From positions 179,883-243,882 of the forward strand of contig CBDHFT010000006.1 of the NCBI GenBank assembly GCA_965262775.1: a stretch of 64,000 bases of DNA, written 5' to 3'. Positions 4,815 through 43,860 of this stretch are shown here, one piece after another. The stretch's first letter is position 1; the number at the start of each line of letters is the position of its first letter. The notes below the pieces were generated by a model, which was given only the letters and a program-made list of their open reading frames with translations, ran no database searches and was not told the origin of the DNA. This DNA comes from Alphaproteobacteria bacterium. Lineage in GTDB: Bacteria; Pseudomonadota; Alphaproteobacteria; JASGCL01. A program made the position numbers and the translations under genes.

Positions 4815-7577
4815 ATGGCAAAGAAAAAAATATTAGCAGAGAAGAACACGACACCAAGTCGTAATGAAATGAAAAGCAGAGCCTTGGCATTTCAAAAAAG
4901 GTGGCAAATTGCTTCTAGTGAGTCTTCTGATAAACAAACTTTTTATAATGAATTTTTTAATATATTTGGAATTGATAGAAAAAAAGTTGCTATCTTTGAA
5001 CAGCAGGTTGAAAAATTAAACAACCGCCGTGGGTCTATAGATTTGTTTTGGCCAAAAAAACTTTTGGTGGAGCATAAATCAAAAGGCGTTGATTTGAAGA
5101 AAGCGGTTGAACAGGCTTATGATTATTGCCTTAATATTGAAAATGATTTGTTGCCTGAATTTTTGTTGGTATGTGATTTTCATGAATTTCGGTTAATAGA
5201 AATTGCTAATAAGCAAAAATATTATTTTACATTGCCAGAATTGCATGAAAAATTGCATCTATTTAATTTTATGACCGATTATAAAAAACAAAACATCGCC
5301 GAGCTTGACCCAATTAATTTAAAAGCGGCAGAACGCATGGGCGATCTTTATGATAATTTAAAAAATGATAATGCTTCACAAAAAGATTTAGAATTATTTT
5401 TGGTGCGTGTGCTTTATTGTTTGTTTGCCGATGATACAGATATATTTAAGAAAAAGATATTTCATGATTTGATTGATAAAAAAACAAGGAGTGATGGGTC
5501 AGATGTTGGCGACAGATTAGCCCATTTATTTCAAACCTTAAATACGCCAAAAGAAAAAAGACCCAGCACTTTAGATTTTGATTTAAATGACTTTGATTAT
5601 ATTAATGGTAAATTGTTTGCCGACACGATTAACATTTTATCTTTTAGCACATGGACAAGAACATATTTGATAAATTGTTGTTCGTTTGTTGAATGGCGAA
5701 AAATATCGCCCGCTATTTTTGGTTCATTGTTTCAATCAATTGCTGATAAGAAAAAAAGACGAAGCACGGGGGCGCATTATACATCGGAAAAAAATATTAA
5801 ACGCACCATTGAACCATTATTCTTAAATGACCTATGGGCAGAATTTCACAAAATAAAAAACAATACTAAACAATTACATGATTTCCATGATAAATTGGCA
5901 TCATTATATTTTTTTGACCCCGCCTGTGGTTGTGGTAATTTTTTGGTGGTGGCTTATCGTGAATTGCGAAAATTAGAATTAGAAATTTTAAAAATATTAT
6001 ATCCCGACACTGAGATAAATAAAAAAATAGATGTTAATGGTTTGTCAAAAATAGATGTAGACCATTTTTATGGGATAGAGATTGAAGAATTCCCCGCCAA
6101 TATTGCCCAAGTGGCTTTGTGGCTAACCGACCATCAAGCAAATTTAGAATTGTCAGAATATTTTGGCCAATATTACGCTAGGATACCATTAAAAAAATCG
6201 CCCAATATTACCTGTGGCAATGCCCTGACGCTGGATTGGCAAAAAATTTTATCCGCCAAACAATGTTCTTATATCATTGGCAATCCGCCATTTATTGGTG
6301 CTCGCCAAAAAGATGGCATGCAATCGAAAGAAATGGAAGATATATTTTCAGGAATAAAAGATTGGGGTAATTTGGATTATGTAACAGCATGGTATAAAAA
6401 AGCCGCCGAATATATCCATGGCACAAAAATTAAGGTGGGGTTTGTTGCCACCAATAGCATTACACAGGGTTTGCACGTTGGTATATTATGGAATAATTTA
6501 ATCAATCAACATGGTATTACCATTCATTTTGCCCATCAAACCTTTGCTTGGTCAAATGAAGCCACGGGTAAGGCGGCAGTTTATGTGGTGATAATCGGTT
6601 TTGCCAATTTTGATAGTGATAAAAAAATTCTATATGAATATGATGATATTAAGGGCGACCCAAATCAATCGCTAGTAAAATATATTAGTCCTTATTTATC
6701 TTCTAACAAAATGGATATTGCAATTAGCAGTCGTGAGAAGCCTTTATGCGATGTGCCAAAAATGTCGTTTGGTAGTATGCCCCGTGATGGTGGTTTTTTA
6801 ATTATAGAAAATGAGAAAGAAAAAGAACAATTGATAAATCATAATCCATTGGTAATAAAATATATTAAAAATTATATTGGGGCAGATGATTTTATCAATG
6901 GTTATAAAAGATATTGTTTATGGTTGGTGGATGCTGAGCCAAGTGATTTAAAAAAAATGCCCTTGGTGATGGAAAGAATAAAAAAAGTAAAAGAATTTCG
7001 GTTGGCGAGCAAAAAAACTGCAACCAGAAAATTTGCTGAAACTCCATCGTTATTTTGCGAACAACGACCCGCAAAAAGTAATTATTTATTAGTGCCACGG
7101 GTGTCATCGGAAAGGCGAAAATATATTCCCATAGGCTTTTTTAGCAAAGATAATATTGTAGCTGATAGTTGCTTAGCTATTGGCAACGCCACCCTCTACC
7201 ATTTTGGCATTTTGACTTCTGCCATGCACATGGCATGGGTAGCGCAAGTTTGTGGACGATTAAAATCAGATTTCCGTTATTCAAAAGATATTGTTTATAA
7301 CAATTTTCCATGGCCAAAGAATCCGCCCACAGACAAAATAAAAAAAATTGAATCCATCGCCCAAAGGATTTTGGATATTCGTAAAAAATATGAAAATAAA
7401 AATACCCTTGCCGATTTGTATGACCCCAATACCATGCCAAGCGATTTGTTAAAAACCCATGAGGATTTAGACAAATTGGTTGATGATTGCTACGGCTCCG
7501 CTGGTTTTGCCAGCAACGGCGATCGCCTCACCCATTTATTTAATTTGTATGAAGAATATATAAAAAATAAAAATTAA
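4815..7577 (+). CDS. MmeI-family Type IIL (IIG) restriction-modification enzyme, with endonuclease, gamma-class N6-adenine methyltransferase and target-recognition domains fused
   Basis: 920 aa, close to MmeI at 919 aa. The N-terminal nuclease D...E.K motif is intact (IDLFWPKKLLVEHKSKG). MTase motif I is FFDPACGCGNFLVVAYRELR and motif IV is IIGNPPFIGARQ. Long stretches are collinear with MmeI as I recall it (DPINLKAAERMG, ISPAIFGSLFQSI, GAHYTSE, FYGIEIEEFPANIAQVALWLTDHQ, TNSITQG, IIGF, YLLVPRVSSERRKYIPIGF, LYDPNTMPSDLLKTHEDLDKLVD). The gene is visibly more AT-rich than its flanks. Confidence 0.85.
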   Translation: MAKKKILAEKNTTPSRNEMKSRALAFQKRWQIASSESSDKQTFYNEFFNIFGIDRKKVAIFEQQVEKLNNRRGSIDLFWPKKLLVEHKSKGVDLKKAVEQAYDYCLNIENDLLPEFLLVCDFHEFRLIEIANKQKYYFTLPELHEKLHLFNFMTDYKKQNIAELDPINLKAAERMGDLYDNLKNDNASQKDLELFLVRVLYCLFADDTDIFKKKIFHDLIDKKTRSDGSDVGDRLAHLFQTLNTPKEKRPSTLDFDLNDFDYINGKLFADTINILSFSTWTRTYLINCCSFVEWRKISPAIFGSLFQSIADKKKRRSTGAHYTSEKNIKRTIEPLFLNDLWAEFHKIKNNTKQLHDFHDKLASLYFFDPACGCGNFLVVAYRELRKLELEILKILYPDTEINKKIDVNGLSKIDVDHFYGIEIEEFPANIAQVALWLTDHQANLELSEYFGQYYARIPLKKSPNITCGNALTLDWQKILSAKQCSYIIGNPPFIGARQKDGMQSKEMEDIFSGIKDWGNLDYVTAWYKKAAEYIHGTKIKVGFVATNSITQGLHVGILWNNLINQHGITIHFAHQTFAWSNEATGKAAVYVVIIGFANFDSDKKILYEYDDIKGDPNQSLVKYISPYLSSNKMDIAISSREKPLCDVPKMSFGSMPRDGGFLIIENEKEKEQLINHNPLVIKYIKNYIGADDFINGYKRYCLWLVDAEPSDLKKMPLVMERIKKVKEFRLASKKTATRKFAETPSLFCEQRPAKSNYLLVPRVSSERRKYIPIGFFSKDNIVADSCLAIGNATLYHFGILTSAMHMAWVAQVCGRLKSDFRYSKDIVYNNFPWPKNPPTDKIKKIESIAQRILDIRKKYENKNTLADLYDPNTMPSDLLKTHEDLDKLVDDCYGSAGFASNGDRLTHLFNLYEEYIKNKN

Positions 7578-17306: not shown

Positions 17307-18839
17307 TTACAGTTGCGTCGCGGGCAACTTGATAGGATAACGTTTGCGCAATTCAACATCCAAGGCTGGGTCAATGAAGGAATGCGGCGGCATGGCAAGA
17401 ATTTTTTCTTTGATGGCGCGCGCCTTTTCCAAAGCGGTTGGCTTGTTATTGGCTTCCCATTCTTTGGGTGATGAGCGGTCAAAGGTTTTGGGATAAAAAT
17501 AATCCTTTTGCATAACGCGTAAAGTTTGGTCGGCCCCCAAGAAATGCCCTGGGCCGTCGATGCAAACCGAACGGATGGTGTCTAAACTCAATAATTCTTC
17601 GGTGACCTCTATGCCACGAATGATACGGCTGGTCGAACCCAAAACATCATTGTCCAATATCAAACTTTCCAAGCAGAACCCGAGCAAACTGGCGTGCATG
17701 CCCGCCGATTCGTAAACCAAATTAGCCCCCGATTGCGCCACAATGGCGTGGTTATAGGCCTTTTCTGCGCCAGCCTGGTAATCAGGAATTTTTGAATCGG
17801 CCATGCCCGAAGCAACGGCGTTGATAAGCCCAAGATGCCTGCCAATTTCTGCTACGCCAGCCATCAACAATGATTGTTCGGCCGAACCGCCGCTCATGGC
17901 GCCCGTGCGCAGGTCGCTAACAAATGGCCAAGCACCAAACATGGCGGGTGCCCCTGGCTTCACGGCGTTAACATAAAATAATCCCGCCAAAACTTCGGCG
18001 GCGGATAGGGTTACCGAGCCCACCAAGGTGGCGGGGCTGGTCGCACCCGCCTGGCCCGCTGATATTAATAAAATAGGCATGCCTTCCAACGCGGCGCGTT
18101 CCAAGCAACGGCAGGCATCTTGCGCAAATTTTAATGGCGGCACCACAAAGCAACAGGATTGCGACACGAAAGGACGCGCCAGCCATTGTTCTTTGCCACC
18201 CGCAATTTCATGCAACATGGCCAAGGATAAATCAAAATGTTTGGTATCAACCCACGAAGTGCCAACATGTTTGCGCGAACCGCGCACCGAGGCATAGCAG
18301 GTGTTAAAATCCATATCCAATGGGTCGGGCAAGTCACGTGGCACCAACGAGCGTTGATAAAAATGGATGTTATCCATGTGGTCGCAGATTTTGGATGAAT
18401 GATAAAGATCTTCCAACACCGATTCGCGATATTCGTTGGTTAGGGCGTCGACCATATGCACCGCGGCACCCGCCGTGCCGTAATAAACGCGGTCATCGTA
18501 GGGGTCTAAATCCCATTCGGGGTCCAAGCCAAATAATGTAAATTTTTTATTGGCAACGGCAAGCATATCCAGCACCGCATTTTTGGGGAAACAAAGACGG
18601 TTATTTTTAACAACCGCGCCTATTTTTTGGCAATATTCTATGGTCGAGGGTAAGGCCTCGGCAAAGCCGATATTTTCCAATATGTTTAGAGCGCTTTCGA
18701 CAATTTTTGATCTTTCTTCGGCGGTAAATAATTTTAAACGCCCCGATTTCATGCCACGCCAAATGGGTTGCAGGTCGGTTTGTAAGGGGGCTTGTCTTGC
18801 GGCAACGCGCGATGCGCGGCCGCCCATTCTTAGTGACAT
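17307..18839 (-). CDS. MttB-superfamily methyltransferase without pyrrolysine (glycine-betaine/quaternary-amine:corrinoid methyltransferase-like, MtgB-type)
   Basis: 510-aa uninterrupted ORF with a TIM-barrel MttB fold. A long collinear region (ILENIGF...HMVDAL...SGGSAEQSLLMAGVAEIGRHLGL...YESAGMHASLLG) is typical of trimethylamine-methyltransferase-family proteins. There is no in-frame amber codon. Confidence 0.75.
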   Translation of the reverse strand: MSLRMGGRASRVAARQAPLQTDLQPIWRGMKSGRLKLFTAEERSKIVESALNILENIGFAEALPSTIEYCQKIGAVVKNNRLCFPKNAVLDMLAVANKKFTLFGLDPEWDLDPYDDRVYYGTAGAAVHMVDALTNEYRESVLEDLYHSSKICDHMDNIHFYQRSLVPRDLPDPLDMDFNTCYASVRGSRKHVGTSWVDTKHFDLSLAMLHEIAGGKEQWLARPFVSQSCCFVVPPLKFAQDACRCLERAALEGMPILLISAGQAGATSPATLVGSVTLSAAEVLAGLFYVNAVKPGAPAMFGAWPFVSDLRTGAMSGGSAEQSLLMAGVAEIGRHLGLINAVASGMADSKIPDYQAGAEKAYNHAIVAQSGANLVYESAGMHASLLGFCLESLILDNDVLGSTSRIIRGIEVTEELLSLDTIRSVCIDGPGHFLGADQTLRVMQKDYFYPKTFDRSSPKEWEANNKPTALEKARAIKEKILAMPPHSFIDPALDVELRKRYPIKLPATQL

Positions 18840-25399: not shown

Positions 25400-26602
25400 T
25401 TATAGGTATTTGATTAATTCTTGGGCGGCGCGGGTCGCGGGGTTGGGGATGCTGCGTAGTTCCTTTAAAGCCTTATCATATTTCTTTTTCATGCCAGCCC
25501 TGCCGATATGAAATTGCTCGGCGGCATGGTTGATAAGATTGACCACGGTGGCATCCTCCTGGATTAGCTCGGGCACAATAATTTGCCCCGCCAGCAAATT
25601 GGGAAGGCAAACATTTTTTATTTTTATTAACTTGCGAACGATAAATATTGTCAGCGGGCTGGCGCGGTAAAAAGCAACCGCGGGGGCACCGCACAAGGCA
25701 GCCTCCAACGTCGTGGTGCCCATGCAACATAGGGCAAGGTCGGTTGATAAAAAATACTGCCATTTCTTTTTGTAATCACTGACAACGCTGATATTGGGGA
25801 CAAATTGGGAATCAGCGCGGCGAATTTTTTCTATCGCCTTTTTGATGGTCGACACCAAATGGGGCTGGGTATAAAAAATATAATGGGTGTCGGTGGGCAA
25901 GAATTTATTCTGGCTAATAAATTGCGACAAGAGCGGTAGGCTGTGGTTGACTTCACGCACCCTGGACCCCGCCAACAATAATATTTGCGGTGGTTTGTTT
26001 TTCTGCGGGGTGTGGGTTTTCTTGGCCGCGGCAACCTCCGCCACCAGCGGATGCCCCATATAAAAGGTTTTTAATTTGGTGTCAGAAAAATAACGCGATT
26101 CAAAAGGATAAAGGCAAAATAGCGCGTCAAATATTTTGGCATATAAAAAACGCCGTTTTGGTCGCCATGCCCAAATGGTCGGGGCGACAAGGTGGATCCT
26201 GGGGAAGGGTTCTTTCCTTAAAGCCCAAGCAACGCGTTTGCTGAAATCGGGTATGTCGATGGTGATAAGCATGTCGGGCTTTTCGCGCCTTAAAAACATA
26301 ATGGTTTTGATAATCAAATAGATAATTTCGCCCAAATGCGGCAGCAATTCCACCAAACCCATTCTGGCAATTTTTTCCATGGGGAATAACGATGCCAAGC
26401 CCGCGGCGGTCATTTTCCTGCCGCCAACGCCGACAAATTTTATGGTGGCGCGTGGATATTTTTTTGCCCAAGTTGCCCTGATGGCGGTCATCATGGCGCC
26501 GCCCAAATCATCGCCCGATGGCTCGCCCGCCAAGATGGCAATTTTAATATTCCCGCTTTTTATTCTGTCCATATTTATGTTGGTTGTTATTGCGCATGGC
26601 AC
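25400..26602 (-). CDS. lpxB: Lipid-A-disaccharide synthase
   Basis: IAILAGEPSGD N-terminus and GT-B fold. The probable true start is the internal Met giving MDRIKSG (at 26572). Confidence 0.85.
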   Translation of the reverse strand: MPCAITTNINMDRIKSGNIKIAILAGEPSGDDLGGAMMTAIRATWAKKYPRATIKFVGVGGRKMTAAGLASLFPMEKIARMGLVELLPHLGEIIYLIIKTIMFLRREKPDMLITIDIPDFSKRVAWALRKEPFPRIHLVAPTIWAWRPKRRFLYAKIFDALFCLYPFESRYFSDTKLKTFYMGHPLVAEVAAAKKTHTPQKNKPPQILLLAGSRVREVNHSLPLLSQFISQNKFLPTDTHYIFYTQPHLVSTIKKAIEKIRRADSQFVPNISVVSDYKKKWQYFLSTDLALCCMGTTTLEAALCGAPAVAFYRASPLTIFIVRKLIKIKNVCLPNLLAGQIIVPELIQEDATVVNLINHAAEQFHIGRAGMKKKYDKALKELRSIPNPATRAAQELIKYL

Positions 26603-26659
26603 GTTGGTTAAGAATAAAAACTATTGGCGTAACTTGCAAGCGATGATTTGATAAAATAA

Positions 26660-27045
26660 AAAAAGAAGGGTTTCTGTTGCTGGGAAACCCTTCAAGACCC
26701 CACCTATCGGGTATGAGCCGACAGGAATTCTGAGATGCACTCTTAAGCCACTCTAGGCAGCAAGAGCAACACCCCTTTCATTGTCATTGGCATTTATAGC
26801 CTTTGAAGCTCTCTTAACCCCTTTATTATAAATAATATCAAGGCGGCGAACTTAATACCGAACGCAAATCATAACCTTTATCACGCCTGTCTAGCCTGTT
26901 TCACCCCCATAATTTTACCCTGTCACTTTGATTTTTTAAGTAAGCCCACAAGTTTTTTTTATGGTGGAGGTGCCGAGTACTGCCCTCGGGTCCAGAACGT
27001 CTATGCCGTTTGATTTGATAGCGTCATAGTCCTGCCAAAGCAGAA
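26660..27045 (-). ncRNA. ssrA: Two-piece (circularly permuted) tmRNA gene ssrA: acceptor piece, spacer, then coding piece encoding tag ANDNERGVALAA
   Basis: Read on the minus strand. The acceptor piece ends ...CUCGGCACCUCCACCA (CCA at plus 26963-26965). The coding piece begins GGGGGUGAAACAGGCUAGACAGG (plus 26908 downward), compare E. coli GGGGCUGAUUCUGGAUUCGACGGG. GGGGGUG pairs with CACCUCC, giving a G3-U70 alanine identity pair. The tag reading frame is GCC AAU GAC AAU GAA AGG GGU GUU GCU CUU GCU GCC UAG, giving ANDNERGVALAA (plus 26753-26791). A 9-bp stem plus U-tract terminator lies at 26664-26691. Upstream promoter is TTGACA-17-TATATC. There is no ORF of 60 aa or longer in this 480-bp gap. 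Confidence 0.85.
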
Positions 27046-27053
27046 CAATATAT

Positions 27054-27082
27054 GATATACTACGCCATGAAAAAAATGTCAA
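27054..27082 (-). promoter_or_regulatory. Sigma70-type promoter of ssrA (TTGACA, 17-bp spacer, TATATC) on the minus strand
   Basis: The minus strand reads TTGACAtttttttcatggcgtagTATATCatatattg. -35 lies at plus 27077-27082. Confidence 0.5.
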
Positions 27083-27133
27083 TCTGCGCCCCATAACCAC
27101 TTCGCCGCTTAACCAGCCTGTTTATCATCAACC

Positions 27134-43335: not shown

Positions 43336-43860
43336 ATGACAAAAAATAAATTGGGATTTATTTTTTTACCATCGCGCAGTTTGTTGCCGCGCTTTTTCAT
43401 GCCTGCCTCGCCATTTTTTTTGGTTGGTTTTTTATTTTTTTTCCTGACTTTTGCCTTAGCACCCGCCTTTGCCCTAAGCAATGACGAAAAGGAAATGTTG
43501 CGCGCCGCCGCCGAGGGGGATGCCGATATTGTCGCCCGATTAATCAAGAAAAATATTGATGTTAATACGGCGGATGAAAAGGGCGAAACATCGCTGCTGA
43601 AGGCCGCTTACAATAAAAATAATAACACGGTGCGCGTGCTTTTGGCGGGGGGCGCAAACCCTAACCAAGCCGATAAGGAAGGCAATACCCCCATCATGGC
43701 CGCGGCTTGGCAGGGGGAGGCTGACATCGTCGCCATGCTCATCACGGCGGGCGCCAATGTTAGGGCAAGAAATAATGGTGGATACAATGCCATGATAGCC
43801 GCGTCGGTTTGGGGTTACCGCGATGTTATAAAATTATTAAGGACCGCGGGGGCTGACTAA
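43336..43860 (+). CDS. Secreted ankyrin-repeat protein (4 ANK repeats)
   Basis: The likely true start is Met at 43399, giving a Sec signal (MPASPFFLVGFLFFFLTFALAPAFA-LS). It is followed by ANK repeats: LLKAAYNKNNNTVRVLLAGGANPNQADKEGNTPIMAAAWQGEADIVAMLITAGANV. Confidence 0.75.
   Translation: MTKNKLGFIFLPSRSLLPRFFMPASPFFLVGFLFFFLTFALAPAFALSNDEKEMLRAAAEGDADIVARLIKKNIDVNTADEKGETSLLKAAYNKNNNTVRVLLAGGANPNQADKEGNTPIMAAAWQGEADIVAMLITAGANVRARNNGGYNAMIAASVWGYRDVIKLLRTAGAD

Follow-up and report, generated by a model that had tools for sequence, protein, structure and literature searches.

The 64-kb window, by which we mean the whole stretch of alphaproteobacterial DNA that was analyzed, has a long intergenic gap between lpxB and recG. 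Both neighbors were identified by profile search of the flanking ORFs, in agreement with the earlier note on this DNA, which had named the same two genes from the letters alone; LpxB, the lipid-A-disaccharide synthase, matches TIGR00215 with 211 bits, over the cutoff. The gap measures 531 bp (530 bp in the earlier note) if lpxB begins at the mechanically assigned GTG at 26602 (minus strand), and it holds no ORF of 60 aa or longer. Since the TIGR00215 match opens at residue 19 and conservation with the genome OZ241918.1 sets in only from about the ATG at 26572, this ATG (MDRIKSGN...) is probably the true start of lpxB, in which case the gap would be about 561 bp long. A mechanical ORF of 54 aa at 26936-27100 (minus strand) overlaps the acceptor piece described below; we weighed it as an alternative and rejected it. 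The minus strand at 26658-27086 carries the complete elements of a circularly permuted tmRNA gene (ssrA), which can be read directly from the sequence (Table 1).

tmRNA frees ribosomes that have stalled and marks the incomplete protein for degradation. Its gene is near-universal in bacteria, the permuted form has been known in the Alphaproteobacteria since 2000, and permuted ssrA is a gene type that standard annotation tools detect, which speaks against the word 'unannotated' in the earlier note. ARAGORN called a permuted tmRNA (tmRNA*) at 26662-27055 (minus strand) with the tag ANDNERGVALAA*. The Rfam model alpha_tmRNA (RF01849) matched over its whole length, positions 1-355, with 180.1 bits (gathering score 50, E=2.6e-50), and tmRNA_permuted (RF04321) matched with 102.8 bits (gathering score 47) over positions 1-213; of overlapping matches within an Rfam clan the best alone was kept, here the alpha model with its 180 bits. 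The earlier note had proposed a minus-strand permuted tmRNA at this place and had suggested ARAGORN in permuted mode and the alpha_tmRNA covariance model as checks. Both gave positive results: ARAGORN and the two Rfam models match the gene at full length, with the tag that had been read by eye. No second tmRNA, one-piece or permuted, was found in the 64-kb window by ARAGORN or Rfam.

On a single strand, the gene runs from an acceptor (3') piece through an intervening sequence to a coding (5') piece, the order already recognized in the earlier note: the CCA ending at 26962 lies upstream of G1 at 26908, and ARAGORN flags the gene as tmRNA*. Together with this order, all the other defining features were found, namely a 7-bp acceptor stem with G3·U70, a discriminator A and an encoded CCA, a T-arm, the helix P2, a GCC resume codon, and a tag ending in ...ALAA. 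We conclude that the lpxB-recG gap almost certainly carries the organism's ssrA, in the circularly permuted, two-piece form typical of Alphaproteobacteria.

Table 1. Features of the permuted ssrA and its surroundings, in the order of transcription, with their conservation in OZ241918.1.
Feature	Position	Strand	Sequence, basis and remarks	Compared with OZ241918.1
-35 box	27077-27082	-	TTGACA; direct reading; positions 4-9 of the Rfam alpha model align here; putative function	
-10 box	27054-27059	-	TATATC; in the Rfam alpha_tmRNA alignment it falls on the consensus block UAUAUU; putative function	
Acceptor piece, about 86 nt	26962-27047	-	Rfam structure alignment and co-fold; 5' end predicted	100% identity
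5' hairpin of the acceptor piece	27046-27029	-		
P2, 3'-side strands	27025-27021, 27014-27008, 26999-26993	-		
T-arm	26989-26973	-	CCGAG-GGCAGUA-CUCGG; loop GGCAGUA at 26984-26978	
Acceptor stem, 3' strand	26972-26966	-	CACCUCC; with the CCA, CACCUCCACCA at 26972-26962	
Discriminator	26965	-	A	
Encoded CCA	26964-26962	-		
Intervening sequence, 53 nt	26909-26961	-	Predicted to be excised from the precursor	Single 1-nt indel
Coding piece	26662-26908	-	ARAGORN and Rfam; starts GGGGGUGAAACAGGCUAGACAGG at 26908	98.4% identity, 4 differences
Acceptor stem, 5' strand	26908-26902	-	GGGGGUG; G3 is 26906 and pairs with U 26968	
P2, 5'-side strands	26889-26884, 26875-26868, 26865-26861	-		
PK1 region	26806-26860	-		
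PK1 stem 1	26860-26857 / 26847-26844	-	CGGU/GCCG; RF04321 model; RNAalifold columns 213-216/226-229	
PK1 stem 2, proposed	26853-26848 / 26811-26806	-	AAGUUC/GAGCUU; proposed by manual inspection	Identical
AU-rich hairpin insertion, 26 nt	26818-26843	-	CCUUGAUAUUAUUUAUAAUAAAGGGG; between the two PK1 3' strands; self-fold -7.0 kcal/mol	
Tag frame	26753-26791	-	GCC AAU GAC AAU GAA AGG GGU GUU GCU CUU GCU GCC UAG; ANDNERGVALAA*; ARAGORN, Rfam	
Hairpin downstream of the tag	26703-26725	-	CCUGUCGG-CUCAUAC-CCGAUAGG; co-fold	
PK2, terminal helix and terminator	26658-26702	-		
PK2 stem 1, proposed	26702-26699 / 26684-26681	-	UGGG/CCCA; proposed manually	
Terminal stem, 10 bp	26693-26684 / 26674-26665	-	GAAGGGUUUC/GAAACCCUUC; -14.2 kcal/mol; loop includes the conserved GCAACAGAA	
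U7 run	26664-26658	-	Putative terminator function	
U-run and spacer towards lpxB				52.9% identity, 25-nt indel
Mechanical lpxB 5' end				68.9% identity

To compare the gene with relatives, we drew on one closely related genome and on metagenomes. Exact look-ups of the window's RecG and RNase PH proteins gave no match, so that the collection queried does not include the window's own genome. A scan of one genome per species, confirmed by tblastn, turned up in OZ241918.1 a RecG 97% identical to that of the window. This complete 1.63-Mb chromosome, uncultured and labelled 'MAG: Alphaproteobacteria bacterium', shares with the window the permuted tmRNA, the tag, an insertion in the pseudoknot PK1 and the gene order lpxB-ssrA-recG. 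The two sequences differ by five small changes in the transcribed region, whereas the spacer on the lpxB side has strongly diverged (Table 1). At least two of the four differences in the coding piece keep the pairing: at 26869 a U-A pair of P2 becomes U·G, and at 26722 a G·U pair of the hairpin after the tag becomes A-U, OZ241918.1 having A. Such changes, predicted to preserve base pairs, are the pattern expected under selection on structure.

The metagenomes were scanned with the pattern GCACCTCCACCA, 35-65 nt, GGGGGTGAAAYAGG, which requires the permuted arrangement, and yielded 64 loci. ARAGORN, run on 60 of the 64, called a permuted tmRNA in 50, nearly all with ANDN...AA tags, and the relatives' tags follow the form ANDN...(L/V/A)AA. 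In nine of the 60 pattern-matching loci (L016, L026, L028, L030, L042, L047, L055, L058 and L063) ARAGORN gave no tmRNA; in several of these the match lies near the end of the contig or locus (70-150 in L016, 37-103 in L030), and truncation is a likely cause. Two marine metagenome contigs (L005, 991-1402, and L033, 2126-2537, both on the minus strand) have an ARAGORN-predicted tRNA-Arg(ACG) that abuts the 3' end of a permuted tmRNA with the tag AEDNFALAA, the two genes sharing one coordinate, which suggests co-transcription or shared processing.

We aligned 23 non-redundant metagenomic genes with the window gene and that of OZ241918.1 using MAFFT (25 sequences). RNAalifold, blind to the Rfam model, recovered the T-arm, the acceptor stem, three P2 segments, PK1 stem 1, a stem in the intervening sequence and the terminal helix. 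Compensatory changes occur in 24 of the 41 pairs that RNAalifold predicted. In the window gene, MAFFT shifts the 5' hairpin and the outer part of P2 by about 3 columns relative to most relatives. The T-arm stem is among the helices with compensatory changes (columns 74-76/86-88), as are pairs of P2. The U·G of the acceptor stem is present in 25 of the 25 sequences, an invariance built into the search pattern.

The acceptor piece terminates in ...GGCACCUCCACCA. Its 3' strand CACCUCC pairs with GGGGGUG, the strand that opens the coding piece, just as the earlier note had drawn it, and G26906·U26968 is the third pair of the resulting 7-bp stem. A G-U at this position, an identity element for alanine, is completely conserved in tmRNA (PMC3985003), and the determinant proposed in the earlier note can be read directly. 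The same note had taken the T-loop GGCAGUA to be non-canonical and had left the folding of the acceptor piece open; this does not hold, since the loop fits the alpha_tmRNA consensus GGCgGUA and recurs exactly in 14 of the 23 aligned metagenomic relatives. Co-folding the predicted 86-nt acceptor and 247-nt coding pieces gave 34 intermolecular pairs, which make up the acceptor stem and the long helix P2. In this model the 7-bp acceptor stem and P2 are predicted to join the acceptor piece (about 86 nt) to the coding piece (about 245 nt), giving a tRNA-Ala-like domain. The single-molecule minimum free energy fold of the 390-nt precursor mis-paired the acceptor stem and was set aside; the structure described here follows the co-fold of the two pieces and the comparison with relatives.

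Between the two pieces lie 53 nt, close to the spacer of about 55 nt in the earlier reading. These nucleotides can form a hairpin by which the acceptor stem is lengthened (AUAA/UUAU and CUUGU/ACAGG, -12.8 kcal/mol); the corresponding spacers of the relatives are 36-64 nt long, with compensatory changes in the spacer stem (columns 105-108/153-156). In Hodgkinia the intervening sequence is likewise reported to fold into a hairpin continuing the acceptor stem, and few RNA-seq reads of the permuted tmRNA fall within it (PMC6581868). Permuted tmRNA precursors are processed by tRNA enzymes (PMC11915505), the two-piece structure includes PK1 and PK2, and its function has been shown in Caulobacter (PMC3985003). 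Cleavage into two mature RNAs has been shown for other members of the family (PMC3985003, PMC6581868). By analogy with the family, the 53-nt intervening sequence would be excised in this organism too (PMC11915505, PMC3985003): tRNA-processing enzymes would remove it, as in Caulobacter and Hodgkinia, with RNase P cutting at G26908, which would become the 5' end of the coding piece, and with trimming from the 3' side halting at the encoded CCA (26962). After processing, the two pieces would persist as a base-paired RNA, again as in the family (PMC11915505, PMC3985003).

Upstream of the acceptor piece, a TTGACA and a TATATC stand 17 nt apart, as described in the earlier note, at a position conserved in the relatives. 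The exact pattern TTGACA-17-TATATC has one occurrence in the 64-kb window and 0 in 100 shuffles, a result that is weak alone, since the pattern was picked after the site had been seen. Because of this post hoc definition, the real support for the promoter is the comparison with relatives. TTGACA is identical in OZ241918.1; in most metagenomic relatives a TATATT lies about 6-8 nt ahead of the 5' hairpin, at a fixed distance, and the -35 position reads CTTTCAA, CTTTAAA or CTTGCG, most relatives having CTTTCAA or CTTTAAA 16-17 nt before the TATATT. The putative promoter is a feature of the family, and the Rfam alpha model itself reaches into the promoter region. A generic promoter and terminator scan missed both sites, as the -10 box ends in C (the rule asks for T at position 6) and the terminator loop has 9 nt (the rule allows at most 8 nt); promoter and terminator were therefore judged by direct pattern search, folding and comparative data. 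The probable start of transcription is the foot of the 5' hairpin, near 27047-27046, and the acceptor piece may therefore need no 5' processing. A sigma-70-type promoter (TTGACA-17-TATATC) would drive a single precursor, about 390 nt long and ending with the 3' hairpin and its U7 run.

After P2, the coding piece continues with the region of PK1, followed by the tag ORF, helix 5 and a hairpin, and then by a predicted PK2 that includes the terminal helix; PK1 stem 1 and the terminal stem of PK2 are supported by the models and the relatives, and in two-piece tmRNA, PK1 and PK2 flank the tag (PMC3985003). The tag frame from GCC to UAG, with its ...LAA degron, had been spelled out in the earlier note and is present as described, in the same form in which ARAGORN gives it. 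A conserved UAUAAAU precedes the frame, which aligns to the tag block of the Rfam family, and in the co-fold the stop codon falls within the loop at the tip of a long predicted helix. Neither the searchable literature nor the supplements of the tmRNA database paper (13,670 characters) contain the tag string ANDNERGVALAA, and the database itself may still list the sequence; the exact 39-nt tag sequence had 0 matches in the metagenomes.

Downstream of the tag, about half of the relatives have a hairpin homologous to that of the window, although by eye the stems differ in sequence; the proposed PK2 stem 1, also compared by eye, reads GGGU/ACCU in some relatives and CGGC/GCCG in others. The stem of the terminal helix shows compensatory changes (columns 412-418/433-439), its variants including GGGGGGC/GCCCCCC, GCAACGG/CCGUUGC and CAGACUGC/GCAGUCUG around a nearly invariant loop, GGCAACAGAA. 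A T-run follows this helix in only some relatives or lineages. The earlier note had described the 3' end as a terminator made of a strong hairpin and a U7 run at 26664-26691. Hairpin and U7 run are indeed there (26693-26658), but the hairpin is not solely a terminator: on the comparative evidence it forms, beyond any terminator role, the terminal helix of the alpha coding piece, which is conserved and covaries. Because the U7 run follows, it is plausible that in the window this helix also serves as an intrinsic terminator.

Aligned to either Rfam model, the window gene has some 29 inserted nt ahead of the tag, which we place in PK1, mainly as a 26-nt AU-rich hairpin (Table 1). This hairpin is absent from 23 of 23 relatives and identical in OZ241918.1. 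The distance from G1 to the resume codon is 117 nt in the window and in OZ241918.1, against 82-86 nt in the 23 relatives, a sample biased towards genes with the same acceptor stem; the excess amounts to about 33 nt. In the predicted ssrA, this lineage-specific hairpin is the sole non-standard feature, and a small curiosity for specialists in tmRNA structure. If the distance is constrained, the insertion could be a natural experiment in how PK1 tolerates or uses an extra helix, or it could be a protein-binding or regulatory handle, readings that we consider improbable.

The longer distance from G1 to the resume codon also bears on whether the gene works at all. It could be an ssrA pseudogene, in decay or no longer functional, within a genome that is reduced and possibly host-associated; it would then resemble ssrA in sequence but have lost its role in trans-translation, for example if the 26-nt insertion disrupts PK1 or the placement of the resume codon, and such decay would fit the small chromosome of the relative OZ241918.1 (1.63 Mb) and the hint of a host-associated lifestyle given by an ankyrin-repeat protein in the window. 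We nevertheless regard a pseudogene as very unlikely. The gene matches the covariance model over its full length, untruncated; its tag frame, ALAA end, G3·U pair and CCA are intact; and the RNA is 98-100% conserved in OZ241918.1, compared with 53% for the neighboring spacer, with substitutions that keep the pairing. The insertion itself folds as a hairpin of its own and disrupts neither of the PK1 strands nor the conserved UAUAAAU-GCC context. That the gene is a mobile-element copy or an attachment-site duplicate rather than the chromosomal housekeeping gene has almost no probability, for although tmRNA genes are often integration sites for islands (PMC11915505), this one is complete and has the core genes lpxB and recG as its neighbors, an arrangement shared by OZ241918.1, no partial duplicate occurs in the 64-kb window (the best off-target match is 13 nt), and no integrase or island genes adjoin it among the ORFs of the window.

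We favor a working chromosomal ssrA, whose product would act as follows. Alanyl-tRNA synthetase would charge the tmRNA with alanine, and the charged tmRNA, with SmpB and EF-Tu, would enter the empty A site of a stalled ribosome. Translation would resume at the GCC at 26791, the nascent chain would gain A-ANDNERGVALAA and be released at the UAG, and the C-terminal ...ALAA would send the tagged protein to ClpXP-type proteases, as is known for the family (PMC11915505, PMC3985003). smpB was absent from the 64-kb window by motif scan and by NCBIfam search of ten ORFs, nine of them small (162-209 aa), which is uninformative since linkage to ssrA is not required.

The permuted tmRNA gene is one of three recognized forms, with 11,946 unique permuted sequences catalogued (PMC11915505). 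The prototype of the alpha two-piece tmRNA (RF01849) is the ssrA of Caulobacter crescentus (Keiler, Shapiro & Williams 2000, as cited in PMC3985003). With the alpha family, the window gene has in common the acceptor-then-coding order, the 5' hairpin of the acceptor piece, a GGCNGUA T-loop, G3·U70, P2 and stem 1 of PK1, and further an ANDN...ALAA-type tag, a terminal helix with a GGCAACAGAA loop and promoter boxes at the family positions. It differs by the 26-nt AU-rich hairpin, which stands after PK1 stem 1, and the longer G1-to-resume distance that goes with it, by its UAG stop, UAA being commoner, and by a -35 box that is a perfect TTGACA. The two-piece tmRNAs of beta-proteobacteria (RF01850) and cyanobacteria (RF01851) and the mitochondrial permuted tmRNA (RF02544) also have a permuted gene, a two-piece RNA and a tRNA-like domain formed in trans (PMC11915505, PMC3985003); they are independent lineages with idiosyncratic terminal regions of their own, and the mitochondrial form has no tag (PMC3985003), whereas the window gene has one. 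One-piece tmRNA (RF00023) shares the function and the tRNA-like and mRNA-like modules, but in the window gene their order is permuted. The window ssrA is at most another member of a well-known gene type, from an uncultured alphaproteobacterial lineage. Its value lies mainly in the completeness of annotation, in that the lpxB-recG gap is now filled; it also supports the window's origin from an alphaproteobacterium and shows that a structured RNA gene can be recognized by eye, as in the earlier note, but it opens no new biology.

Some other features of the window deserve mention. The Rfam model PYLIS_3 (pyrrolysine insertion sequence, mttB) matched at 17705-17804 (minus strand) with 42.8 bits (gathering score 38), within an uninterrupted 510-aa ORF of the MttB family at 17307-18839 (minus strand; Pfam MTTB, 329.8 bits; TIGR02369, 307.6 bits, under its cutoff of 525). 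Because this ORF has no in-frame UAG, the match looks like coding-sequence homology in a non-pyrrolysine MttB homologue and not like a functional PYLIS element. A 174-aa ankyrin-repeat protein is encoded at 43336-43860 (plus strand; Pfam Ank_2, 108.7 bits) and has weak similarity to Legionella Dot/Icm Ank effectors; taken with the size of the relative's chromosome, it hints at a host-associated lifestyle. The stretch at 4815-7577 (plus strand) is low in GC (0.37-0.39, the window as a whole having about 0.46) and corresponds to a 920-aa ORF that has all five domains of MmeI, a type IIL restriction-modification enzyme, and this MmeI-type ORF was probably acquired horizontally.
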